In this document: piece after piece, positions 1,931 to 30,944 of the stretch
Position numbering within the stretch: position 1 is the stretch's first letter
Layout of the letters: every line of letters starts with the position of its first letter
Assembly: GCF_003010495.1 (NCBI RefSeq)
Contig: NZ_CP027570.1
Location: 2,250,001-2,282,000 of the forward strand
Length of the DNA stretch: 32,000 bases
Direction of reading: 5' to 3'
Source of the DNA: Megasphaera elsdenii DSM 20460
GTDB lineage: Bacteria > Bacillota > Negativicutes > Veillonellales > Megasphaeraceae
Program-made: the position numbers and the translations under genes
Notes under the pieces: model-generated
The model's database searches: none
Told to the model about the DNA's origin: nothing
The model's input: only the letters and a program-made list of their open reading frames with translations

Positions 1931-2039
1931 GTGTCAGCAGCTAGCAGTTAGCAGTTCGTAGGGGACGCCCAAAGGGCGTCCCGCAGAGTGCAGTTAGCTA
2001 TCAGCCATTAGCAGTTAGACACTAACGGCTAACCCCTAA
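1931..2039 (+). repeat. heptad-periodic arrays (CAGTTAG-type words) flanking a GC hairpin in the cstA 3' UTR
   Basis: gtgtCAG cagcTAG cagtTAG cagtTCG TAG at 1931-1961. Hairpin GGGGACGCCC-AAA-GGGCGTCCC at 1961-1982. Eight in-register heptamers at 1984-2039: cagagtg cagtTAG ctatCAG ccatTAG cagtTAG acacTAA cggcTAA ccccTAA. Confidence 0.7.
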
Positions 2040-2042
2040 AAA

Positions 2043-2073
2043 GGGCCTGTTGCATATGCAACGGACCCTTTTT
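2043..2073 (+). terminator. intrinsic terminator after cstA
   Basis: Stem GGGCCTGTTGCA / TGCAACGGACCC (one mismatch, one G-U) followed by TTTTT at 2069-2073. Confidence 0.7.
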
Positions 2074-2170
2074 ACTTATAAAAAATGTAATTTATAAAGT
2101 TAAATACTTATTTAGAGTCAAAAGTATAACGTTTTAATTATAAATTGTGAAAGTTTTCGCTTAAAATCCC

Positions 2171-5417: not shown

Positions 5418-6248
5418 ATGAAACACAGCAAGCTGGAAATCGCCTTGCTCACAATCAGCGTCGTCTTCGTCGTGGTCATGCTCATCGTCCCCCTGGTGTC
5501 GGTCCTGGTCAATTCGCTGGCCGAAGGTTGGGAGTTCTACATCCAGGCCCTGACGACGCCGTACGTCCTGTCGGCCCTGCGCCTGACCTTGCTGGCTACG
5601 GTCGTCGCCGTCATCGTCAATACAATCTTTGGCCTCGGCGCGGCCTGGGCTATTTCCAAATTCGACTTCCGGGGCAAGCACTTCTTGACGACACTCATCG
5701 ATATCCCTTTTTCCATTTCGCCGGTCATCGCCGGCCTGGCCTTCATCATGACTTTCGGCCGCATGGGCTGGATCGGCCAGTGGATCGAAGTCCTCAACGA
5801 CTATTGGGGGACGGATATCCAGATTGTCTTCGCCATTCCCGGCGTCATCTTGGCGACGATTTTCGTCACCTTTCCCTTCGTCTTCCGGGAAATCATCCCC
5901 GTCCTCAGCACCAATGGGCGCGACGAAGAGGAAGCGGCAGCCCTCATGGGCGCCAGCGGCTGGACGATTTTCTTCCGCATCACCCTGCCGCAGATCAAAT
6001 GGGCCCTGCTCTACGGCATCGTCCTCTGTACAGCCCGGGCCCTCGGCGAATTTGGGGCCGTCAGCGCCTTGTCCAAACTGCGCGGCGAGACCTTTACGCT
6101 GCCCCTGGAAATCGACGCCCTCTATCAGTCAGGGTCAGCCGATGCCATTACGGCGGCCTTCGCCGTATCATCTCTGTTAGTACTCTTAGCCATTATCGTC
6201 CTGCTCCTTCGGACCTTCCTCGAAGCCAAGGCCGATAAGTCATCGTAA
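5418..6248 (+). CDS. cysW: sulfate ABC transporter permease CysW
   Basis: 276-aa multi-TM paralogue of cysT with an EAA loop (EEAAALMGASGWTIFFRITLPQIKWAL). GAGGAGGGGAG RBS. Confidence 0.88.
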   Translation: MKHSKLEIALLTISVVFVVVMLIVPLVSVLVNSLAEGWEFYIQALTTPYVLSALRLTLLATVVAVIVNTIFGLGAAWAISKFDFRGKHFLTTLIDIPFSISPVIAGLAFIMTFGRMGWIGQWIEVLNDYWGTDIQIVFAIPGVILATIFVTFPFVFREIIPVLSTNGRDEEEAAALMGASGWTIFFRITLPQIKWALLYGIVLCTARALGEFGAVSALSKLRGETFTLPLEIDALYQSGSADAITAAFAVSSLLVLLAIIVLLLRTFLEAKADKSS

Positions 6249-6262
6249 AGGAGGTGAAGCTC

Positions 6263-7324
6263 ATGTATGTCGAAATGAAACACATCGAAAAGAATTACGG
6301 CTCCTTCCATGCGTCGCGCGACGTTTCCTTTGGCATCGACAAGGGCAAGCTCGTCGCCCTCCTCGGTCCCAGCGGCAGCGGCAAGACGACGATTCTGCGC
6401 ATGCTGGCCGGCCTGGAGAATCCCAACAGCGGCGACATCTTCATCGACGGCCGCCGGGTCAACGACATTCCCGCTGCCAAGCGGGGCATCGGCTTCGTCT
6501 TCCAGAACTACGCCTTGTTCCGCTATATGACCGTTTTCGATAACGTCGCCTTCGGCCTGGAGATACAGAAGCGGCCGAAAGATGAGATACGCCGCCGCGT
6601 CCTGGAAATGATCGACCTCGTCGGCCTTTCCGGCATGGAAAAGCGCTATCCCAACCAGCTCTCCGGCGGTCAGCGCCAGCGCGTGGCCTTTGCCCGGGCT
6701 CTGGCACCGAATCCCCAGGTCCTGCTCCTGGATGAGCCCTTTGCCGCCATCGACGCCAAGGTCCGCCAGGAACTGCGCAACTGGCTGAAGGATACGATCC
6801 ACCGCGTCGGCATTACCAGCATCTTCGTCACCCACGACCAGGATGAAGCCGTCGAAGTGGCCGATGAAATCATCATCACCAACCACGGCCGTATCGAACA
6901 GGTTGGCACACCGCTGGACATATACCGCCAGCCGCAGACACCTTTTGTAGCTCAATTTATCGGAACTCCGGTTGTCATCAATAACTGCAACATCCTCACA
7001 GGGTTTCTCAGCATCGGACAAGGAAAACAAGCCATTGTCCGGCCGGAATTTCTCAAGATCTATAAATACGGTACAATGAAGCAGTATATCAGTGCCGCCG
7101 AAGAAGGGACCGTCGAAGCCGTCGTCTTCCGGGGCAGCCATCTCGACGTGACCGTCCGCATCAAGGGCCTGGCCGTCCATGGAGAATATTCTTTCGACGA
7201 CCCGCCTTTGAATGTCGGAGAGACCGTCCAGGTCCTGATTTACCGCTTGTATGTCCTCGACGGCGACAAGACGTATTTGAAAGAAAACAGCGCCATGACT
7301 TCGGCCGACGTTTTCTATATTTAA
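6263..7324 (+). CDS. cysA: sulfate ABC transporter ATP-binding protein CysA
   Basis: Walker A GPSGSGKTT, signature LSGGQRQRVA, Walker B LLLDEP. AAGGAGG at 6248-6254 lies 8 nt before ATG 6263. The ORF-track start at 6254 is a GTG inside the RBS. Confidence 0.9.
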   Translation: MYVEMKHIEKNYGSFHASRDVSFGIDKGKLVALLGPSGSGKTTILRMLAGLENPNSGDIFIDGRRVNDIPAAKRGIGFVFQNYALFRYMTVFDNVAFGLEIQKRPKDEIRRRVLEMIDLVGLSGMEKRYPNQLSGGQRQRVAFARALAPNPQVLLLDEPFAAIDAKVRQELRNWLKDTIHRVGITSIFVTHDQDEAVEVADEIIITNHGRIEQVGTPLDIYRQPQTPFVAQFIGTPVVINNCNILTGFLSIGQGKQAIVRPEFLKIYKYGTMKQYISAAEEGTVEAVVFRGSHLDVTVRIKGLAVHGEYSFDDPPLNVGETVQVLIYRLYVLDGDKTYLKENSAMTSADVFYI

Positions 7325-7340: not shown

Positions 7341-9038
7341 ATGCAGATTACCAGTGAGAAGCTCATCCATACGGATGTCCTCATCATCGGCGGCGGGACG
7401 GCCGGCTGTTATGCCGCTTTGACCCTCCGCAGCCTGTCTGACGCCTCGGTGGTCATCGCCGAAAAGGCCGATATCCGCCGCAGCGGCTGTCTGGCAGCCG
7501 GCGTCAACGCCTTGAATGCCTATATCACCAAGGGCCATACGCCGCAGTTCTACGTCGACTACGCCAAGAAAGACGCAGCCGGCATCGTCCGGGAAGACTT
7601 GCTCCTGACCATGTCCGAAGGCCTCAACGAAGTCACGAAGAAGCTGGAAGACCTGGGGCTGGTCATCTTGAAGGATGAACAGGGCGAATACGTCGCCCGC
7701 GGGACGCGCAACATCAAGATCAACGGCGAGAACATCAAGACCATCCTGGCCGACGCCGTCAAGAAACTCGATGATGTCCAAGTCATCAACCACTTGAACA
7801 TCACTGACTATATCGTCCGCGATGACACCATCGCCGGAGCCTTGGGCTTTGATATCCGCACGGGTACAGCCTATGAAATCCGGGCCAAAGCTGTCCTCTG
7901 TGCGACTGGCGGCGCTGCCGGCCTATATCGGCCCAACAATCCCGGCTTTTCCCGGCACAAGATGTGGTACTGTCCTTTCAATACGGGTGCTGGTTACGCC
8001 ATGGGCATCCGGGCCGGCGCCGAAATGACGACTTTTGAAATGCGATTCATCGCCCTGCGCTGCAAGGATACCATTGCACCGACCGGGACCATTGCCCAGG
8101 GCGTCGGTGCCAGGCAGATCAATGCCCGCGGCGAAGTGTACGAACAGAAATATGGCCTGACCACCTCTCAGCGGCTCTATGGCACGGTCCGGGAAACGCT
8201 GGACGGCAACGGTCCGTGTTATCTCGGCACAGAAGGCATTACGCCAGCCCAGGATGAATCGCTCCTCAAGGCCTATCTCAACATGGCACCGAGCCAGACC
8301 TTGAAATGGATCGAATCGGGCAAGCTGCCGAGCCAGCAGAACGTCGAAATCGAAGGGACTGAGCCCTATGTCGTCGGCGGCCATACGGCCAGCGGCTACT
8401 GGGTCGACACGAACCGCCAGACGACGATCCGCCACCTCTATGCAGCAGGTGACGTTGCCGGTGGCTGCCCGCAGAAATACGTCACCGGTGCCCTGGTCGA
8501 AGGGGAAATCGCCGCCAAAGACATGGTCCGCCAGGGCCTGACCGATGCGACGGGCCTCGATGAAGCCCAGGAAAAGGCCATCCTCGCCGAAAAAGTGGCT
8601 GAATACAACGCCGCCCTCGGCGAAAGGGACAGTTTCTTCACGGTCGAACAGCTGGAAGAAGCCATGCAGAAGGTCATGGACACCTATGCCGGCGGCATCG
8701 GCAGTCATTACCAGTACAACGAGAAGCAGCTCGACCTGGCCGATGAAAAGATCGACCAGCTCATGGAACTGGCAGCCCACGTCGGCGCCAGCGACTACCA
8801 TGAACTGCTCTTCGTCTACGAACTGCGCGAACGGCTGACGGTCTGCAAGGTCCTCATCGCCCATCTCCGGGCCCGCAAGGAAACGCGGTGGCATTCCTTT
8901 GCAGAAAACCTCGATTACCCGGAACAAAGCGATGACTGGCTGAAATACGTCAACTCCCGCTTGGGCGAAGACGGCCAGGTCCACATGATTTACCGCGATT
9001 TAGTACCAGGAGGGGACGTTTATGAGCATACGCATTAA
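7341..9038 (+). CDS. aprA: AprA-like FAD flavoprotein, putative assimilatory adenylylsulfate (APS) reductase alpha subunit
   Basis: N-terminal FAD fold DVLIIGGGTAGCYAA. Fumarate-reductase/AprA-type flavoprotein length (565 aa). Lies between cysA and cysD and is followed by an overlapping small ferredoxin. The function is inferred from context. Confidence 0.7.
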   Translation: MQITSEKLIHTDVLIIGGGTAGCYAALTLRSLSDASVVIAEKADIRRSGCLAAGVNALNAYITKGHTPQFYVDYAKKDAAGIVREDLLLTMSEGLNEVTKKLEDLGLVILKDEQGEYVARGTRNIKINGENIKTILADAVKKLDDVQVINHLNITDYIVRDDTIAGALGFDIRTGTAYEIRAKAVLCATGGAAGLYRPNNPGFSRHKMWYCPFNTGAGYAMGIRAGAEMTTFEMRFIALRCKDTIAPTGTIAQGVGARQINARGEVYEQKYGLTTSQRLYGTVRETLDGNGPCYLGTEGITPAQDESLLKAYLNMAPSQTLKWIESGKLPSQQNVEIEGTEPYVVGGHTASGYWVDTNRQTTIRHLYAAGDVAGGCPQKYVTGALVEGEIAAKDMVRQGLTDATGLDEAQEKAILAEKVAEYNAALGERDSFFTVEQLEEAMQKVMDTYAGGIGSHYQYNEKQLDLADEKIDQLMELAAHVGASDYHELLFVYELRERLTVCKVLIAHLRARKETRWHSFAENLDYPEQSDDWLKYVNSRLGEDGQVHMIYRDLVPGGDVYEHTH

Positions 9039-9336
9039 TCAGGAACGATGCATCGGCTGTGGCCAGTGCATCGACGTCTGCCCGGGCAGCCTCATCGACC
9101 GCAACGACCAGGGCAAGGCGTGGATGCATTATCCCAAGGACTGTTGGGGCTGTGTGTCCTGCGTCAAGGAATGTCCGGTCCAGGCCATCGACTTCTACCT
9201 CGGCGCCGACATGGGTGGCCGGGGCAGCACGATGAACGTCACGGCGGACGGCCATTACCTGCATTGGCATATCCATCAGGCCGACGGGACGGAAAAGACC
9301 ATCACTGTCGACCGAAAACAGGCAAATTCGTATTGA
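9022..9336 (+). CDS. aprB: AprB-like 2x[4Fe-4S] ferredoxin subunit
   Basis: CIGCGQCIDVCP and CWGCVSCVKECP cluster motifs. Overlaps aprA by 17 nt. GGAGGGG RBS at 9010-9016. Confidence 0.65.
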   Translation: MSIRINQERCIGCGQCIDVCPGSLIDRNDQGKAWMHYPKDCWGCVSCVKECPVQAIDFYLGADMGGRGSTMNVTADGHYLHWHIHQADGTEKTITVDRKQANSY

Positions 9337-9374
9337 GTCTGATAGGGAAAACGCCAGTATTCAGTATATTTCTT

Positions 9375-9456
9375 ATTTGTCGTTTGATGTTTGACGTTTG
9401 AAGTTTGACGCATAGACGCACATCAAACATCATACATCAAACATCACACATCAAAA
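9375..9456. repeat. inverted arrays of TGA-containing heptamers forming a long imperfect hairpin (aprB-cysD junction)
   Basis: Left arm atttgtc gtttgat gtttgac gtttgaa gtttgac at 9375-9409. Core GCATAGACGCA. Right arm catcaaa catcata catcaaa catcaca catcaaa at 9421-9455. The arms are about 80% complementary and no T-run follows. Confidence 0.7.
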
Positions 9457-9474
9457 CATAGGGGGATTCATATT

Positions 9475-10374
9475 ATGTGTGCATTATCGCATCTCGACAA
9501 GTTAGAGGCCGAAGCGATTTACATCATCCGCGAAGTTGCCGCGGAATGTGAAAAGCCGGTCATGCTCTATTCTATCGGCAAGGACAGTTCTGTCATGCTT
9601 CACCTGGCCCTCAAGGCCTTTTATCCGGAAAAGCCGCCTTTCCCGTTCCTCCATGTCAATACGACGTGGAAGTTCAAAGAAATGATCCGCTTCCGCGATG
9701 AAACCATGAAGAAATATGGTCTGCAGCTCATTGAATACATCAATCAGGAAGGGGTCAAACAGGGCGTCAATCCCTTTGACTATGGCGCAGCCTATACGGA
9801 TATCATGAAGACCCAGGCCCTCAAGCAGGCGCTCAACAAATACGGCTTCACCGCTGCTTTTGGCGGTGGCCGCCGGGACGAAGAAAAATCCCGCGCCAAA
9901 GAACGTATCTTTTCCTTCCGCAATGAAGCCCAGGCCTGGGACCCGAAGAACCAGCGCCCGGAAATGTGGAAGCTCTACAATACGCACATCCATAAAGGCG
10001 AAAGCATGCGCGTATTCCCGATTTCCAACTGGACGGAAAAAGATATCTGGCAGTATATCAAACGGGAAAACATCGACATCGTGTCCTTGTATTTCGCCAA
10101 AGAACGGCCCTGCGTCTATCGCGATGGCAACATCATCATGGTCGACGACGACCGCATGCGCCTCAAGCCGGGAGAAGAAATCATGCACAAGAAGATCCGC
10201 TTCCGTACTTTGGGATGCTATCCTTTGACAGGGGGCATCGAATCCGATGCCGATACGCTGGATGCCATCATCGATGAAACACTGAGCGCCGTCTCGTCGG
10301 AACGGACGAGCCGCGTCATCGATAATGAAGCAGCCGGCAGCATGGAACGCAGAAAGAGAGAGGGGTATTTCTAA
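9475..10374 (+). CDS. cysD: sulfate adenylyltransferase subunit 2
   Basis: [19 protein letters not shown]-reductase/ATP-sulfurylase fold motif [14 protein letters not shown], and C-terminal [10 protein letters not shown], as in CysD. Confidence 0.92.
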
Positions 10375-15757: not shown

Positions 15758-16525
15758 ATGTACAACGACGAATACGCAGCTTCTGCAGCCGGTGCGGCCG
15801 CCAAGGTCGGCCTGCTGAAGAAGAACCCCTTAGGCTATTTCCTCATGTCGGCTTTAGCCGGCGCCTACATCGGCTTCGGTATCCTCCTGTCCTTTACCGT
15901 CAGCGGTACCCTCGGTGCTATTCCTATGACGAAGATCGCCATGGGCCTGTCCTTTGGCATCGCCTTGAGTCTGGTCGTCATCGCCGGGGCAGAACTGTTC
16001 ACGGGCAATGCCTTCGTCCTCTACAACGGCTGGCGTTCGAAGACGGTCACTTTGACGGACGTCGTCCGCCTGTGGGTCGTCTGCTACCTGGGCAACTGGT
16101 TCGGCGCCATCGTCTTGTCCCTGATTTTCTACGGTGCTGCCGGCACGGCTGGCGGCACCGGTCAGGCCCTGGCCAATGCCGCTGCCATGAAGATGAGCCT
16201 GCCGCCGCTGGTACTCTTCCTCAAAGGCATCCTCTGTAACGTCCTGGTCTGCCTGGCCGTCTGGTGCGGCTTCCGCTGTAAATCGGACAGCGGCAAACTG
16301 ATCATGGTCTTCTGGTGCCTCTACGCCTTCTTTACCTGTGGCTTTGAACACAGCGTAGCCAACATGACCGTCCTGACCCTGGGCCTGCTGAATCCCGCCG
16401 GCACGGCCGTCAGCGTCGGCGGTTATCTCTACAACCTGGCCTTTGTCACCTTGGGCAACATCGTCGGTGCCATCCTCTTCTTGTCCATTCCCTACGGCAT
16501 TGCAGCGAAGAAGATTGGTGATTAG
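15758..16525 (+). CDS. formate/nitrite transporter (FNT) family channel, probable hydrosulfide channel
   Basis: 255-aa six-TM FNT-like ORF (AGAELFTGN, FEHSVANM). Lies 10 nt after asrC with a GGGAGGAG RBS. Confidence 0.85.
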   Translation: MYNDEYAASAAGAAAKVGLLKKNPLGYFLMSALAGAYIGFGILLSFTVSGTLGAIPMTKIAMGLSFGIALSLVVIAGAELFTGNAFVLYNGWRSKTVTLTDVVRLWVVCYLGNWFGAIVLSLIFYGAAGTAGGTGQALANAAAMKMSLPPLVLFLKGILCNVLVCLAVWCGFRCKSDSGKLIMVFWCLYAFFTCGFEHSVANMTVLTLGLLNPAGTAVSVGGYLYNLAFVTLGNIVGAILFLSIPYGIAAKKIGD

Positions 16526-16553
16526 TGGCTCGTGGCTAGTGGTTCGTGGCTCT
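16519..16553 (+). repeat. heptad array TGATTAG TGGCTCG TGGCTAG TGGTTCG TGGCTCT in register with the FNT stop codon
   Basis: Five exact 7-nt units. The TAG of the first unit (16523-16525) is the gene's stop codon. The same words recur at 30257-30291 and on the minus strand at 30376-30417. Confidence 0.75.
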
Positions 16554-16620
16554 CCTTATAGGAGAGCTGTCAGCGAAGCTGACTGAGAGGTTGCTCTTTC
16601 TTTATAGTAGTCCGTGAGTT

Positions 16621-16697
16621 GTAGGGGCACACGTGGGATGCCCGTCAGGAATGATAGGACATATCCCGGAGCGGGCTCGCCACGTGCGAGCCCCTAC
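16621..16697. other. 77-nt extended stem-loop in the 3' UTR
   Basis: GTAGGGGC (16621-16628) pairs with GCCCCTAC (16690-16697). CACGTGG (16630-16636) pairs with CCACGTG (16680-16686). Preceded by hairpins at 16550-16566 and 16569-16583. Confidence 0.55.
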
Positions 16698-16705
16698 AGA
16701 AAAAA

Positions 16706-16736
16706 GGACCTGTCGCAAATGCGACAGGTCCTTTTT
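16706..16736. terminator. bidirectional intrinsic terminator shared by the asr-FNT operon and the convergent lexA-crp unit
   Basis: AAAAAA then GGACCTGTCGC, AAAT loop, GCGACAGGTCC, then TTTTT. Perfect 11-bp stem. Confidence 0.85.
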
Positions 16737-17398
16737 CAATACAGCGTCACGCGCTGCTGGTCTATTTCGATGAGGCCATCGGCCTTCATATGGCTCAGTT
16801 CCCGGGCTACGGCGGTCCGGTCGGCACAGAGGTAATCGGCCAGCTGGGTCCGGGTTATGGGGATGGTGAAGGTCGGACTGCCAACCTGTTCGGACTGGAA
16901 GGAGAAGTACGTCAGCAATTTCTTGCGCAGCGTTTTTTTGGAAATGACTTCGAGCTTTTCCAGGAGCTGGGCATTCTTATCGGCCATGAGGCGGAGCATG
17001 TTTTCAATGAGCTGAAAATGGAAGGGGCAGGCATTGGTACAGACATGCAGGACCTTGTGGAAGGGCAGGACCAGGAATTTCGTGTTCTTTACTGCCTGGA
17101 AGGTCACGATGGATTGAAGTACCGTACCACAGACAAAGGTTTCTCCAAAGAGACCGCCGCTGCGGATGACGGCCAGGACGGCCTTGTCGCCCCAGCGGTC
17201 TTCGTGGATCATGTGGATTTCTCCGCTGAGGACGATGCCGATGTAGCGCACTTCATCCTGAGCCAGGACCAGAAATTCGCCTTTGCGGACGGTCCGGACC
17301 CGCGCACCCAGGCAGGTGAGCATGGCCATGCGCTTGTCGGGGCTGATGCCGGTAAAGAAGGGGAGGTCATCGGGCAGGATGGGTAAAGAATCAGTCAT
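16736..17398 (-). CDS. Crp/Fnr family transcriptional regulator
   Basis: 220 aa with an N-terminal cNMP-binding-like beta-barrel (GEFLVLAQDE, GGLFGE) and a C-terminal HTH (TRTQLADYLCADRTAVARELSHMKADGLI). GGAGG RBS. Confidence 0.85.
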   Translation of the reverse strand: MTDSLPILPDDLPFFTGISPDKRMAMLTCLGARVRTVRKGEFLVLAQDEVRYIGIVLSGEIHMIHEDRWGDKAVLAVIRSGGLFGETFVCGTVLQSIVTFQAVKNTKFLVLPFHKVLHVCTNACPFHFQLIENMLRLMADKNAQLLEKLEVISKKTLRKKLLTYFSFQSEQVGSPTFTIPITRTQLADYLCADRTAVARELSHMKADGLIEIDQQRVTLY

Positions 17399-27924: not shown

Positions 27925-27933
27925 GGTCAAGAG

Positions 27934-27975
27934 CCGCTGCAACAATCATCCGGTTGTTGCGGTGGTTCTTTTTTT
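27934..27975 (+). terminator. intrinsic terminator after yoeB
   Basis: CCGCTGCAACAA (27934-27945) pairs with TTGTTGCGGTGG (27954-27965), 12 bp including two G-U. Then TTCTTTTTTT. Confidence 0.7.
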
Positions 27976-28120
27976 GTCTATGAAGAATTAATAATACATT
28001 AGGGCTTATTGCGCCAAAACAGGCCATGGAAAAACAGTTGAAGGCTTATGACAAAGAACTACGAAATAAGGATGGCGGTAACTGATGATTGCTTTTTCGA
28101 GAGCTTTTTGTGAATTTTTA

Positions 28121-28188
28121 AGCGGCTTTTTAGCGGCTTTAGGTTTTCAGCAAGTTTTTTGCCGACTTTTTTGCCGATATTTTGCCGA
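28121..28188. repeat. phased 11-12-bp short direct repeats (iteron-like)
   Basis: AGCGGCTTT at 28121 and 28132 (period 11). TTTTGCCGA at 28157, 28169 and 28180 (periods 12 and 11). No ORF. Confidence 0.5.
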
Positions 28189-28423
28189 TTTTGATATGAA
28201 AAACGAGGAAATTTGGCAGTTATTGAGAAAAAGTGAAAGTGGTATTACTTGTTAAATAAATGGCTTAGTTATGCTGGATAGAAAGTGTTACAATATGCAC
28301 CTCCATTCTCATTTAAAATAACTTACGATAATTTAACGTTATCGGAAGTAATAATACTTCTAACTCCACCCCGTACTGCTAATGACTATAAAATCACTAT
28401 ATTTCTAGTAATTCACTATCATT

Positions 28424-28447
28424 AATGATATCTACAATGATATCTAC
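28424..28447. repeat. perfect tandem 12-mer AATGATATCTAC x2
   Basis: 28424-28435 equals 28436-28447. Each copy contains the GATATC palindrome. A related AATGACTATA lies at 28381. Confidence 0.6.
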
Positions 28448-28772
28448 TTATTTTGGCTCATTTTTGATTCTCTCCCTGCTAATATGGCCAAATTATTATG
28501 CTGACGGAATTTTTTTGCTTCATAACCGGACTTGTAAACCTGTCTCTGTATTTGCTGATACTTGAGATTGTATGATTCATATAGGCTGGCGGAATTGAAT
28601 ATAGGCGTCATGCGTCTTTAAGCATATTTAACTTAGGTCAAGATGAATGATGTTAATCTATCATGATAGTTTGCCAGGTTCTTGGTGTGGAATCCTTACT
28701 ACGAGCTAATCTGTTGTCTATGGATATGATTCTTTTTTCTATACAGGTATCATCTTAATAGTTGAGCTAATC

Positions 28773-28857
28773 AACTACTTTTAGGGAAATTAGGCTTCTT
28801 CTCTAAAAGTAGTTCAAAAAAACATTCATTGCGAAGGCCTTTCTTTGGCAGTATAAT
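28773..28857 (+). promoter_or_regulatory. MFS gene promoter preceded by a 12-bp perfect inverted repeat
   Basis: AACTACTTTTAG (28773-28784) and CTAAAAGTAGTT (28803-28814). TTGCGA at 28829-28834, 17-nt spacer, TATAAT at 28852-28857. Confidence 0.5.
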
Positions 28858-28897
28858 TAGGGTTGCTTATTACTGTTTTTTACGGAGGTTATTCGCC

Positions 28898-30256
28898 ATG
28901 CAGCGATTTTTGTCTTACGAAAATACGATTTTAGCTGTCGTCATGATGGTGTCTTTTATCAACCCTTTTACCAGCAGCGCTTTGACGACGGCTTTGCCTG
29001 GGATTGGTACGGCTTATGGTGCGACGGATGCCCAGCTCAGTTGGGTCATTGAGTTGTTCTTGATTTCTTCGACGGTGACGATTATGCCAATCAGCAAGAT
29101 TGCCGACCGGATTGGCAAGCGTCATGTCTTCTTGTTTGGTGTATCCTTATTCTGTGTCTCGTCACTGGCTGTGTATTTTGTGACTTCCCTCTATGGCTTA
29201 TTTTTACTGCGCATCTTGCAAGGCCTGGGCAGTGCCAGTATTTTTGCCACCAGCATGGCCATCGTCTCCCTGGTCACCCCGCCGGAACGTCGCGGCCGGG
29301 CTATGGGCTTTACCATTGCCGCTGTGTATTGCGGGCTGTCCTTTGGTCCGGTTCTGGGCGGTTTCTTTTCTTATTACCTGGGCTGGAAGACAATTTTTTA
29401 TTTTATCGCCATTATCTGTGCCGTGGCCTGGCTGATTGCCCTGTATAGCATGAAAAAAGAAGAATGGATTGTCAATTCCCATGGCAGTCTGGATTTGTTT
29501 GGTAGCCTCTTATATGCCCTGGCTATGATTGCCATTATGGTTGGCTTATCGGAAGTAACGAGTCTTTTCTATGCTAAATATCTCTTGGCCGCCGGCTTCA
29601 TCCTGTTCCTGGTGTTCTTGTATGGTGAATGGCACCAGAAAAGCCCGGTCCTGCCCGTCCGTATTTTTGCCGACAATCGCGTGTTTTCCTGTTCCAGTTT
29701 GGCAGCTATGCTCAACTATTGTGCAACTTTTGGCATCAGTTTCCTCTTGTCCATTTATTTGCAGCGCATTACCGGCCTCAATGCCCGTGACACGGGACTC
29801 GTCCTATTGCTCCAACCGGTGCTGATGGCGCTCTTGTCCCCTGTCACCGGAGCGCTGTCGGACCGTATCAATCCCGCCGTCCTGGCTTCTTCCGGTATGA
29901 TTTTGATTACCTTCGGTCTCTCCTGTCTGGCAATCAATGTCTCTCTTTCTTCCTTCTGGCTCATTGCCCTGGCCCTGGTCATCATCGGCATCGGTTTTGC
30001 CCTGTTCACGGCGCCGAATAATAACGCGATTATGGGATCCGTGGCACCCAAATATTATGGGGCTGCTTCATCGGTCGTCAGTACGGTCCGCCTCATCGGC
30101 CAGGTCCTCAGCGTGGCCATCATCACCTTGATTTTGTCGCAAAGCGGCGCCGCGGCTGCATCGGACTGGTTGGCCCATCATATTCAGCAAGCCTTCATTG
30201 TTTTCACGATTCTCTGTGCCATTGGTATTGTCCCTTCAGCAGCACGGAGTAAGTGA
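28898..30256 (+). CDS. MFS transporter, 14-TM DHA2 (EmrB/QacA-like) type
   Basis: About 452 aa, multi-TM, with MFS motif-A-like ADRIGKRHVF and LQGLGSA. GGAGG at 28884-28888 lies 9 nt before ATG 28898. The ORF-track start at 28829 is a TTG inside the -35 box. Confidence 0.85.
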   Translation: MQRFLSYENTILAVVMMVSFINPFTSSALTTALPGIGTAYGATDAQLSWVIELFLISSTVTIMPISKIADRIGKRHVFLFGVSLFCVSSLAVYFVTSLYGLFLLRILQGLGSASIFATSMAIVSLVTPPERRGRAMGFTIAAVYCGLSFGPVLGGFFSYYLGWKTIFYFIAIICAVAWLIALYSMKKEEWIVNSHGSLDLFGSLLYALAMIAIMVGLSEVTSLFYAKYLLAAGFILFLVFLYGEWHQKSPVLPVRIFADNRVFSCSSLAAMLNYCATFGISFLLSIYLQRITGLNARDTGLVLLLQPVLMALLSPVTGALSDRINPAVLASSGMILITFGLSCLAINVSLSSFWLIALALVIIGIGFALFTAPNNNAIMGSVAPKYYGAASSVVSTVRLIGQVLSVAIITLILSQSGAAAASDWLAHHIQQAFIVFTILCAIGIVPSAARSK

Positions 30257-30291
30257 TGATTCGTGGTTAGTAGTTAGTGATTAGTGGTTCG
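30250..30291 (+). repeat. heptad array TAAGTGA TGATTCG TGGTTAG TAGTTAG TGATTAG TGGTTCG in register with the MFS stop codon
   Basis: Six exact 7-nt units. The TGA of unit 1 (30254-30256) is the stop codon, and unit 2 starts with a second in-frame TGA. The array runs straight into the terminator stem. Confidence 0.75.
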
Positions 30292-30292
30292 C

Positions 30293-30342
30293 AAAAGAGG
30301 ATGCTGCATTAAGCCAAAAACGCTAATGCAACATCCTCTTTT
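30293..30342. terminator. bidirectional intrinsic terminator between convergent genes
   Basis: AAAA then AGAGGATGCTGCATTA (30296-30311) paired with TAATGCAACATCCTCT (30324-30339), 15 of 16 bp, then TTTT. Confidence 0.8.
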
Positions 30343-30372
30343 CAAAAAGCGTATGAAATTAAATTTATGTAT

Positions 30373-30417
30373 TTACGAGCCACGAGCCATTAACCACGAG
30401 CCACTAACAACTATTTC
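30373..30417 (-). repeat. minus-strand heptad array GAAATAG TTGTTAG TGGCTCG TGGTTAA TGGCTCG TGGCTCG TAA in register with the stop codon of the 30411-30944 gene
   Basis: Read on the minus strand from 30417 down to 30373. The TAG of unit 1 (complement of 30411-30413) is the gene's stop. Same word family as 16519-16553. Confidence 0.75.
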
Positions 30418-30944
30418 ACAAAATAATGGGCCGAGTCATCGACGAGGCTGTTTTCCAGGAGGGCTTTGAACTGCGGGGCACTCATTCCGGCTGCCTGGGC
30501 AGAGAACTGATAGTCTCCCACTTTCCAATGAGCGACGTAGGACGTGTCGTTGATTTTAGCGATGCTGACGGGAACGCCGTCGATGACCTGGTCTTTCCAG
30601 GTTACGCTATAGACGCCGGAAATATCTTTCATCGATTTATCGGCTTTCTGGGGCATCGTGCGGACGCGGACCGTCGTTTCCGGTTGGCCTAAGCGCTGGA
30701 AGCCGATGTCCGCAGTGTGTTTGCCGATTAAAGAGAGGTAATAACAGCTGAAGCCGGCGTCGCGGGTCAAATACAGCGGTGTAAAGCCGGCATCTTTTAC
30801 GACATTTTCATAGGTATCGTAGATCACAATAGGATTAGGTATGCCGATCGGCTGGACTTTCGGCGTACTGGCTGCGAAAGAAGTACTGCCAATCATCAAC
30901 GTGGCACAGGCTACTAAGAGAGAGTTTTTTACAATGTGTTTCAA
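30411..30944 (-). CDS. hypothetical secreted protein
   Basis: 177 aa with a signal peptide (MKHIVKNSLLVACATLMIGSTSFAAS). No family recognised. Confidence 0.6.
   Translation of the reverse strand: MKHIVKNSLLVACATLMIGSTSFAASTPKVQPIGIPNPIVIYDTYENVVKDAGFTPLYLTRDAGFSCYYLSLIGKHTADIGFQRLGQPETTVRVRTMPQKADKSMKDISGVYSVTWKDQVIDGVPVSIAKINDTSYVAHWKVGDYQFSAQAAGMSAPQFKALLENSLVDDSAHYFVK

Follow-up and report, generated by a model that had tools for sequence, protein, structure and literature searches.

The feature described here was found in a 32,000-nt stretch of Megasphaera elsdenii DSM 20460 DNA (contig NZ_CP027570.1, positions 2,250,001 to 2,282,000 of the forward strand), hereafter called the window, in which short tandem arrays of 7-nt units follow the stop codons of protein-coding genes, among them the gene of a formate/nitrite-transporter (FNT) family protein. 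The arrays differ by whole units between strains, stand after native stop codons, run in the sense orientation of the gene they adjoin and have counterparts in many phyla. We consider it probable (about 0.75) that they are a slippage-generated heptanucleotide microsatellite of a known class, which grew in situ between a native stop and the hairpin that follows it. The arrays, with the unit consensus TGRYTMG, are a new unit family and a new host (Negativicutes, Megasphaera) of an already described repeat kind, and no new mechanism is revealed by the finding.

The FNT gene (15758-16525, + strand, 255 aa; Pfam PF01226, E = 7.7e-64) is the last gene of a sulfite-reductase cluster (asr-like; assimilatory or anaerobic). 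A residue-identical protein was detected in the M. elsdenii DSM 20460 record HE576794.1, where the FNT 3′ flank is also identical to the window, and in many metagenome assemblies. Array 1 (16519-16553, + strand) reads TGATTAG TGGCTCG TGGCTAG TGGTTCG TGGCTCT and belongs to the unit family TG[G/A][C/T]T[A/C]G. Its first unit is composed of the final 4 coding nt and the native stop TAG (16523-16525), which fills slots 5-7, and the coding heptad AGATTGG (16512-16518) just before it agrees with TGATTAG at 5/7 positions. An earlier reading of this DNA, made from the letters alone and referred to below as the sequence-only reading, had described five exact 7-nt units here with the stop inside the first; the five heptads and the place of the TAG are borne out, but the units are variants of one another and not exact copies. 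It had also predicted that read-through of the TAG would add WLVASGSWLSL up to the in-frame TAG at 16559-16561, and this is what the sequence encodes. Three small hairpins lie directly 3′ of the array (16548-16598, + strand, -34.4 kcal/mol, z = -2.9), and the last unit of array 1 falls in the 5′ arm of the first of them (16548-16568, GGCUCUCCU/AGGAGAGCU).

The same word family recurs after two other genes, as had been claimed. Array 2 (30257-30291, + strand; TGATTCG TGGTTAG TAGTTAG TGATTAG TGGTTCG) begins at the base after the TGA stop (30254-30256) of a gene for a 452-aa major facilitator superfamily (MFS) transporter (28898-30256, + strand; Pfam PF07690; start at ATG 28898 confirmed by exact look-up), contains UAG-N4-UAG-N4-UAG once (30268-30284) and ends 1 nt short of the stem of a bidirectional intrinsic terminator hairpin that lies between convergent genes (30293-30343; -29.1 kcal/mol, z = -3.7, and -39.8 kcal/mol, z = -3.9, on the two strands). 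Array 3 (30376-30410, - strand; TTGTTAG TGGCTCG TGGTTAA TGGCTCG TGGCTCG, with the triplet series TAG, TCG, TAA, TCG, TCG) begins at the base after the TAG (30413-30411) of a 177-aa gene (30411-30944, - strand) which has an N-terminal signal-peptide-like segment and no Pfam hit, and which is a gene call in six strains. Arrays 2 and 3 thus flank one terminator, and each of the two convergent genes has its own sense array. The two-unit pattern TGRYTMGTGRYTMG, with at most one mismatch, gave 12 matches in the window, all inside arrays 1-3, against 0.38 expected; none of 100 shuffles of the window reached 12, the maximum being 3. Tandem Repeats Finder reported period 7 at 16525-16552, 30263-30289 and 30375-30404. 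Altogether four post-stop arrays were observed in the window (the fourth, array 4a, follows a cstA-like gene), in each of which the G/T-rich strand is the sense strand of the preceding gene and the 5′ edge lies 0-9 nt past the stop. The arrays are non-coding and lie past the stop, before the following gene or terminator; array 1 alone overlaps a coding end and its stop, with its first unit.

Substantial variation in array length was observed between strains. Across ten M. elsdenii assemblies the FNT array comprises 3, 3, 3, 3, 4, 5, 5, ~5.6, 6 and ~11 units, while all ten have the same FNT C-terminus and the same TGATTAG gene end. In the 3-unit alleles (4/10 strains) a single unit separates gene end and hairpin; over all FNT alleles the stop-to-hairpin spacer measures 9 nt to ~65 nt. 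L004 and L006 carry one or two additional copies of the 18-nt block TGATTAGTGGCTCGTGAG; the stop heptad is included in these duplications, and therefore the FNT gene end itself has been re-copied downstream. In L138, array 2 has 4 units and array 3 has 3 units, versus 5 and 5 elsewhere. Since the strain differences are whole-unit gains and losses, they point to slippage rather than insertion. Arrays 2 and 3 were also considered as a selected inverted repeat and rejected as such: their units pair only in part, and the losses of 1 and 2 units in L138 are uncompensated.

Two FNT variants, each a metagenomic singleton, were encountered besides these alleles. In P0004, CAG (Gln) replaces the TAG, so that the protein reads IGDQWLVL..., ...IGDQWLVLVALLIGELSAKLTERLL..., with a 32-aa tail through the array and the hairpins, while P0003 is a comparable frame-shifted variant. 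Either variant could be a genuine allele or stem from an error of assembly, and P0004 is the effect of a stop mutation, not programmed read-through. For annotation this serves as a warning that the arrays give strain-variable 3′ flanks and that one TAG mutation yields a spurious C-terminal extension.

Related genes that lack an array end in the same way. The FNT proteins of other Megasphaera lineages diverge in the tail after PYGIAAKK; the L132 orthologue (86% identical) ends AAA AAA ATC ACT GAA TAG tcgaactcg without an array, and the M. elsdenii gene, which ends AAG AAG ATT GGT GAT TAG tggctcg, has the same length and TAG position. In L131 (89% identical) a KK-TAA end is followed at once by a terminator, with degenerate heptads only past it, and no array was detected in the compared 3′ flanks of the FNT orthologues in L133 and L134. 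The MFS orthologue of L356 (87% identical) ends ARSK-TAA, with the stop at the same codon position, and runs directly into a terminator. Because the orthologues keep the C-terminus and the stop position in the absence of an array, the stops are native and the arrays expanded after them. The sequence-only reading had proposed a stop-supplying element that inserts at gene 3′ ends or replaces them, and had suggested looking for the native stop elsewhere in orthologues free of the array; L132 has it at the same position, and the proposal fails on this and on the whole-unit differences between strains. A Megasphaera lineage represented by P0022 and by L133 509-1372 (117 member sequences) has an FNT protein whose C-terminus is extended by a Ser/Thr/Pro-rich stretch of 34 aa, KKQAQSTTSISPSHKTGVPKRTVAPVPSSASPSTTH, and whose gene has no post-stop array. 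Some Megasphaera heptads were located past a terminator (L131 10763-10900, L356 2860-2900 and L093 5520-5650), L356 having a single TGGTTCG right after the T-run and L093 ten TGGCTCG units 3′ of the terminator; therefore the arrays are not strictly elements of the 3′ untranslated region.

The distribution of the unit was surveyed by scanning one genome per species for TGGYTMG x3, and the array loci so collected, together with the window, amount to 869 kb. The scan gave at least 120 matches against ~17 expected from base-frequency arithmetic. Among the matches listed, Planctomycetota, Acidobacteriota, Chloroflexota, Cyanobacteria, Bacteroidota, Verrucomicrobiota relatives and Proteobacteria were represented, as were Clostridia and Negativicutes, including four Megasphaera. 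The TG[G/A][C/T]T[A/C]G family was also located at further unlinked loci in M. elsdenii MSK.21.52 contig 23 (L093) and in other Megasphaera (L045, L083 and L091). A period-7 detector found 343 arrays in the 869 kb, and in a control on the first 30 sequences (236 kb) it reported 68 arrays compared with 1 in shuffled sequences. In viral contigs, TGGYTMG occurred in 101 stretches versus 53, 27 and 34 for three composition-matched control heptads (2-4x), revealing that the unit is favoured, not unique.

The arrays were found to be strongly polar with respect to genes. When arrays were oriented by G > C, and gene-end adjacency was judged by open-frame length, as an open frame of at least 150 codons ending -10 to +24 nt from the 5′ edge, a long frame ended at the 5′ edge of 100 of the 338 arrays on the G-rich strand and of 17 on the C-rich strand (binomial p = 2e-15). 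Stop-adjacent arrays ascertained by pattern gave 42 versus 10 (G-rich versus other strand) in the genome set and 34 versus 12 in the viral contigs, where composition-matched control heptads show the bias as well, more weakly. The claim that the arrays are tied non-randomly to gene 3′ ends is therefore upheld across many phyla. Survey arrays begin ~0-15 nt from the stop of the upstream gene, and their C-rich side tends to sit just 5′ of start codons (25 versus 11 within 20 nt). A hairpin right after the arrays, considered as a general companion, was unsupported outside Megasphaera, the downstream 50 nt folding at -8.8 kcal/mol versus -11.5 kcal/mol in controls, which were coding sequence and make this a crude test.

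A register between array and stop is a different matter. The sequence-only reading held that arrays 2 and 3 are, like array 1, in register with their stops and that such a coincidence at three genes is hard to ascribe to chance. For arrays 2 and 3 the register depends on counting the pseudo-units TAAGTGA and GAAATAG, and means no more than that the array begins directly behind the stop; array 4a is off register, with the cstA-like TGA in slots 3-5, two bases out of heptad phase. In the survey, 92 arrays had a long-ORF (open reading frame) stop between -60 and +21 nt from their first in-phase T[AC]G triplet; 39 of these arrays provide that stop with an in-phase TAG of their own, while it lies 3-59 nt upstream in 53; in 18 of the 92 the open frame passes one or two units before reaching the in-phase TAG. 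The phase of the 53 upstream stops, all next to arrays of other genomes, was uniform (11, 9, 7, 7, 7, 6 and 6; chi-square p = 0.86), which rules out register as a general property. The recurrence of arrays beside stops is thus far beyond chance, but the register is not, except where the TAG of the array is the stop. We infer that register is a by-product of a period-7 unit that bears TAG and not an independent property. Nor are stop triplets enriched, units with one numbering 125 against 118.7 expected from letter-shuffled units.

Tandem heptamers are already known from other bacteria. Mazel and colleagues reportedly described in 1990 the short tandemly repeated repetitive (STRR) heptamers of cyanobacteria, which are said to occur in tandem in non-coding DNA with several families per genome, to have been described only from heterocystous species and to have the units CCCCAGT, TTGGTCA and CAACAGT (a work cited as ref. 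39 in PMC4692102); in our survey, STRR-like units stand next to TGGTTAG arrays at the cyanobacterial loci L050, L051, L080 and L119. Among the long simple-sequence repeats (LSSRs) of many bacteria, heptamers are the most numerous kind, and polymerase slippage has been proposed as their origin (Mrazek, Guo and Shah 2007, as summarised in PMC4679880 and PMC4692102). The Megasphaera arrays are like heptanucleotide LSSRs in their tandem 7-nt units, their dispersed, intergenic and non-coding location and a copy number that varies among relatives, but they are short, with 3-11 units, and mix variants instead of repeating one exact unit. Rehm et al. 2015 found GGGAATC in Xanthomonas and GGGGA(C/T)T in Nostoc PCC 7120, the latter corresponding to STRR1, mostly 0-50 bp past stops on the coding strand, with some repeats overlapping the stop and others just 5′ of ORFs on the non-coding strand (PMC4692102). 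Those repeats are transcribed, vary among close relatives, occur in inverted pairs and have no known function, and their units contain GGG or GGGG runs, form quadruplexes in vitro and show a four-unit preference (PMC4692102). The Megasphaera arrays share with them the post-stop site, the sense G-rich strand, the stop overlap, the length variation and the inverted pairs, whereas the Megasphaera units have GG at most and carry TAG or TCG. The FNT allele sizes (3, 4, 5, 6 and 11 units) come from one locus, too few loci for a distribution comparable with the four-unit preference. TAACTGA direct repeats, recorded in Beggiatoaceae, cyanobacteria and Bacteroidetes (MacGregor 2015, PMC4679880), lie mostly immediately 5′ of start codons in forward orientation, and cold-shock proteins, S1 and CsrA have been proposed as binders, none of them tested (PMC4679880). 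They too are stop-bearing heptamers, intergenic, strand-biased and scattered across phyla, but TAACTGA precedes starts and the Megasphaera arrays follow stops.

Enterobacterial repetitive extragenic palindromes and the bacterial interspersed mosaic elements that they form (REP/BIME) are palindromic units of ~35 nt placed just past stops and mobilised by RAYT transposases, and in them the distance from stop to structure can affect expression. The Megasphaera arrays are likewise dispersed, extragenic and post-stop; unlike REP/BIME they are direct 7-nt repeats with a non-palindromic unit, and they adjoin REP-like palindromes. No mention of TGGTTAG/TGGCTAG (TGRYTMG) arrays or of Megasphaera repeats was found in the literature searched. 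The host list of heptamer repeats gains a gut and rumen Firmicute (Negativicutes), and the TGGYTAG-type unit is found from Planctomycetes to cyanobacteria and in viral contigs. Heptamers are the commonest long microsatellites of many bacteria, and no explanation is known for their period of 7, their sense G-rich strand or their stop adjacency. M. elsdenii, which can be cultivated, offers natural allele series with 3 to 11 units between stop and hairpin, on which an effect of copy number on expression or termination could be examined.

In the slippage reading, an existing native stop would come first and heptads would then expand 3′ of it by replication slippage. A 7-nt period could not persist within a reading frame, which would confine the arrays to non-coding DNA, and a unit that carries TAG would close any frame entering the array within three units at an in-phase TAG, giving the apparent register. 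The practical effect would be a heritable G/U-rich spacer of variable length, separating the stop from the hairpin or terminator downstream. Several observations weigh against this account. The strong strand bias, and the adjacency of ORFs to the 5′ edge and not the 3′ edge, go beyond pure neutrality; the unlinked Megasphaera arrays (arrays 1-3, L045, L083, L091 and L093) have one narrow variant set in common, in which a slot-6 A/C transversion is shared; and TGGYTMG is 2-4x commoner in viral contigs than composition-matched heptads. In addition, it is the allele patterns that suggest slippage, and the M. elsdenii census extends over ~40 kb and three or four further loci of 8 kb.

Because of the unexplained polarity, variant set and unit excess a functional reading stays alive, though we hold it to be unlikely. 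A selected post-stop context or protein binding had also been the alternative offered by the sequence-only reading. The arrays would then be a selected regulatory device or cis-element, shared across phyla including phages, that acts on the transcript or on single-stranded DNA, with copy number tuning its strength, rather than a neutral microsatellite. As one part of this joint functional reading they could serve as serial binding sites for a protein whose footprint is 7 nt, of the cold-shock/S1 type or with HutP-like UAG-N4 recognition. Another form is a strand-specific Rho signal, in which the G/U-rich, C-poor sense RNA would be Rho-refractory and the C-rich, G-free antisense RNA would let Rho stop convergent read-through; a third is a copy-number "rheostat" setting the distance of the terminating ribosome to the next hairpin or terminator, over the 9 to ~65 nt seen in the FNT alleles. 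If true, the rheostat or the Rho-signal form would account for the polarity, the narrow variant set and the 2-4-fold TGGYTMG excess. The sense-strand bias and stop adjacency across phyla, the restricted variants of unlinked Megasphaera arrays, the excess over matched controls, the UAG-N4-UAG-N4-UAG of array 2, the convergent genes with their own sense arrays on each side of one terminator and the transcription of the repeats of Rehm et al. are all in keeping with such a role. Yet 4/10 strains manage with one unit between the FNT gene end and the hairpin, the sister species lack the array at both orthologous loci (FNT and MFS), stop triplets are at their expected number in the units (125 versus 118.7), and some Megasphaera arrays, in L093 and L131, lie past a terminator and would therefore be poorly transcribed; no binding protein is known, and no search aimed at one was made. 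A specific candidate was the HutP site of the Bacillus subtilis hut operon, in which UAG-N4-UAG-N4-UAG occurs twice in a 5′ leader and which needs HutP to control the downstream genes. The likeness lies in the period of 7, the UAG triplet and, at array 2, the adjacent terminator hairpin, but the Megasphaera copy number is not conserved and the UAG/UCG alternation of array 1 breaks such a site. A HutP-type site, which takes two sets of three (U/N)AG with 4-nt spacing, was rejected: array 2 has one set, and TCG units break arrays 1 and 3. No HutP hit was obtained among the window proteins scanned with Pfam, a scan confined to the window, HutP (PF09021) not having been looked for in the genome.

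Three further explanations find less room. A translational backstop, in which TAG, recurring with period 7, closes each of the three frames within 21 nt and is selected to release read-through or frameshifted ribosomes, would fit arrays that stand directly past stops in sense orientation, the commonness of TAG units and the 39 of 92 stop-adjacent arrays that supply the stop of the gene themselves. We judge it improbable, given that half of the Megasphaera units are TCG and hold no stop, read-through of the FNT TAG runs 11 codons unstopped, arrays of 10-20 units far exceed the length needed, and the published stop-proximal GGGAATC and GGGGAYT repeats lack a stop triplet (PMC4692102); selection for three-frame stops is ruled out at the composition level by the stop-triplet content, 125 stop-bearing units against 118.7 in letter-shuffled units. 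The chances are slimmer still for a mobile or recombining element, one that would carry its own stop codon into a gene 3′ end by insertion or replacement. Such an element would agree with the 18 of 92 frames that read one or two units before the TAG, by which some C-termini would be array-encoded, with a perfect palindrome in L053 that spans both convergent stops, and with an FNT tail that varies after KK between species. Against it, the last residues and the stop position are shared by FNT and MFS orthologues that lack an array, the allelic differences are units gained or lost within the array, and the three TGRYTMG arrays have no terminal inverted repeats, target duplications or conserved flanks; as a supplier of stops it is refuted at both loci tested, FNT and MFS. 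Hardly credible, finally, are G-quadruplex-forming repeats of the Rehm et al. type acting through four-stranded structures. Period, strand and position relative to the stop are as in the GGGNATC repeats, but the units have GG at most or none (TGATTAG, TAGTTAG), no GGG run occurs in arrays 1-3, and the arrays themselves are predicted to fold weakly as RNA.

The region 3′ of array 1 contains other repeats. The second and third of its hairpins are GUCAGC-GAA-GCUGAC and GAGAG/CUCUU, and the middle one is a copy of a dispersed Megasphaera element (CTCAGTCAGC) which is also present beside arrays in L083 and L093. This hairpin element, CTCTCAGTCAGC-N3-GCTGACAGCTC, was located at 16561-16591 of the window (reverse), L083 ~425-460 and L093 ~5680-5700, and adjoins arrays in either orientation. 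A REP-like palindrome, GTAGGGGC...GCCCCTAC, was read from the sequence at 16621-16697, and its motif GTAGGGG[CA] also adjoins arrays in L083, L091 and L045. The family GTAGGGG[CA]...GCCCCTAC (window 1958-1985 and 16621-16697; L083 396-489, 2934 and 3028; L045; L091) often begins immediately past the final TCG unit of an array (...TCG|TAGGGGC), with 6 copies in 8 kb of L083 and 4 in 3 kb of L045, and looks like a dispersed extragenic palindrome of Megasphaera. A bidirectional terminator-like hairpin, AAAAAAGGACCTGTCGC-AAA-GCGACAGGTCCTTTTT (16700-16737, read likewise), is common to the FNT side and to the convergent crp-family gene (16736-17398, - strand; Pfam PF00027/PF13545).

The cstA-like gene (231-1928, + strand; Pfam PF02554), whose stop is TGA at 1926-1928, is followed after 9 nt by array 4a (1938-1958, + strand), of the form CAGYTMG, with the units CAGCTAG CAGTTAG CAGTTCG. 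The hairpin GGGACGCCC-AAA-GGGCGTCCC (1962-1982, + strand, from sequence and fold), which lies within CG|TAGGGGA..., separates it from array 4b (1991-2039, + strand), composed of seven NNNNTAR units (CAGTTAG CTATCAG CCATTAG CAGTTAG ACACTAA CGGCTAA CCCCTAA), and a terminator predicted by folding follows at 2040-2074 (+ strand). A second heptad family forms an inverted pair, (TTTGAYG)x5-loop-(ACATCAN)x5, at 9373-9457 (+ strand), folding into a hairpin of ~35 bp (-28.5 kcal/mol, z = -6.1); its units are TTTGTCG TTTGATG TTTGACG TTTGAAG TTTGACG and ACATCAA ACATCAT ACATCAA ACATCAC ACATCAA. The pair sits between an aprB-like ferredoxin gene (9022-9336) and a cysD-like gene (9475-10374), the spacing of which varies between strains from 71 to 140 nt.

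Inverted arrangements were also observed in the survey. At L053 ~6270-6350, in a Chloroflexia metagenome-assembled genome (MAG), a perfect palindrome reads AAATAG-(TGGTTAG TGGTTAG TGGCTAG TGGTTAG)-loop-(reverse complement)-CTATTT and takes in the stops and last codons of both convergent open frames; resembling inverted pairs occur in L029, L059, L040, L058, L087 and L122. Both arrays of L083, at 207-245 and 2744-2780, are preceded by TAT(T/A)TATCATACCAT(A/G)G, so that the opposite strand has TGGTATGATA, which resembles an extended -10 box; 17 nt upstream of it stands a TAGCCA derived from the array. The C-rich strand of the arrays may sit in promoter regions of opposite-strand genes. These two L083 loci also have ~100 nt of downstream flank in common (D2, D5, D6).

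All four window genes that precede an array encode membrane or secreted products (CstA, FNT, MFS and the signal-peptide protein), which is probably coincidence because no such association was seen in the wider survey: a link to membrane or secreted proteins was rejected there, transmembrane-like segments being present in 36% of array-adjacent ORFs versus 38% of controls. A scan of the whole window with Rfam 15 gave a single hit at gathering score, an S-adenosylmethionine (SAM) riboswitch at 2351-2448, and none on the arrays, while a permissive scan of 16400-16800 gave sub-threshold hits only, located 3′ of the array, and none on array 1. The SAM (S-box) riboswitch (82 bits) precedes the pyridoxal-phosphate (PLP)-enzyme/sulfate-assimilation cluster that is closed by the FNT gene. 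Further repeats were observed in the non-coding stretch 5′ of the MFS gene (27930-28897), namely the 11-nt repeats TTTTTAGCGGC x2.3 (28116-28140) and TTTTTTGCCGA x3.4 (28155-28192), and the 12-nt direct repeat AATGATATCTAC x2 (28424-28447). This upstream region is replaced or different in some strains, with L138 having a 3438-aa gene there.

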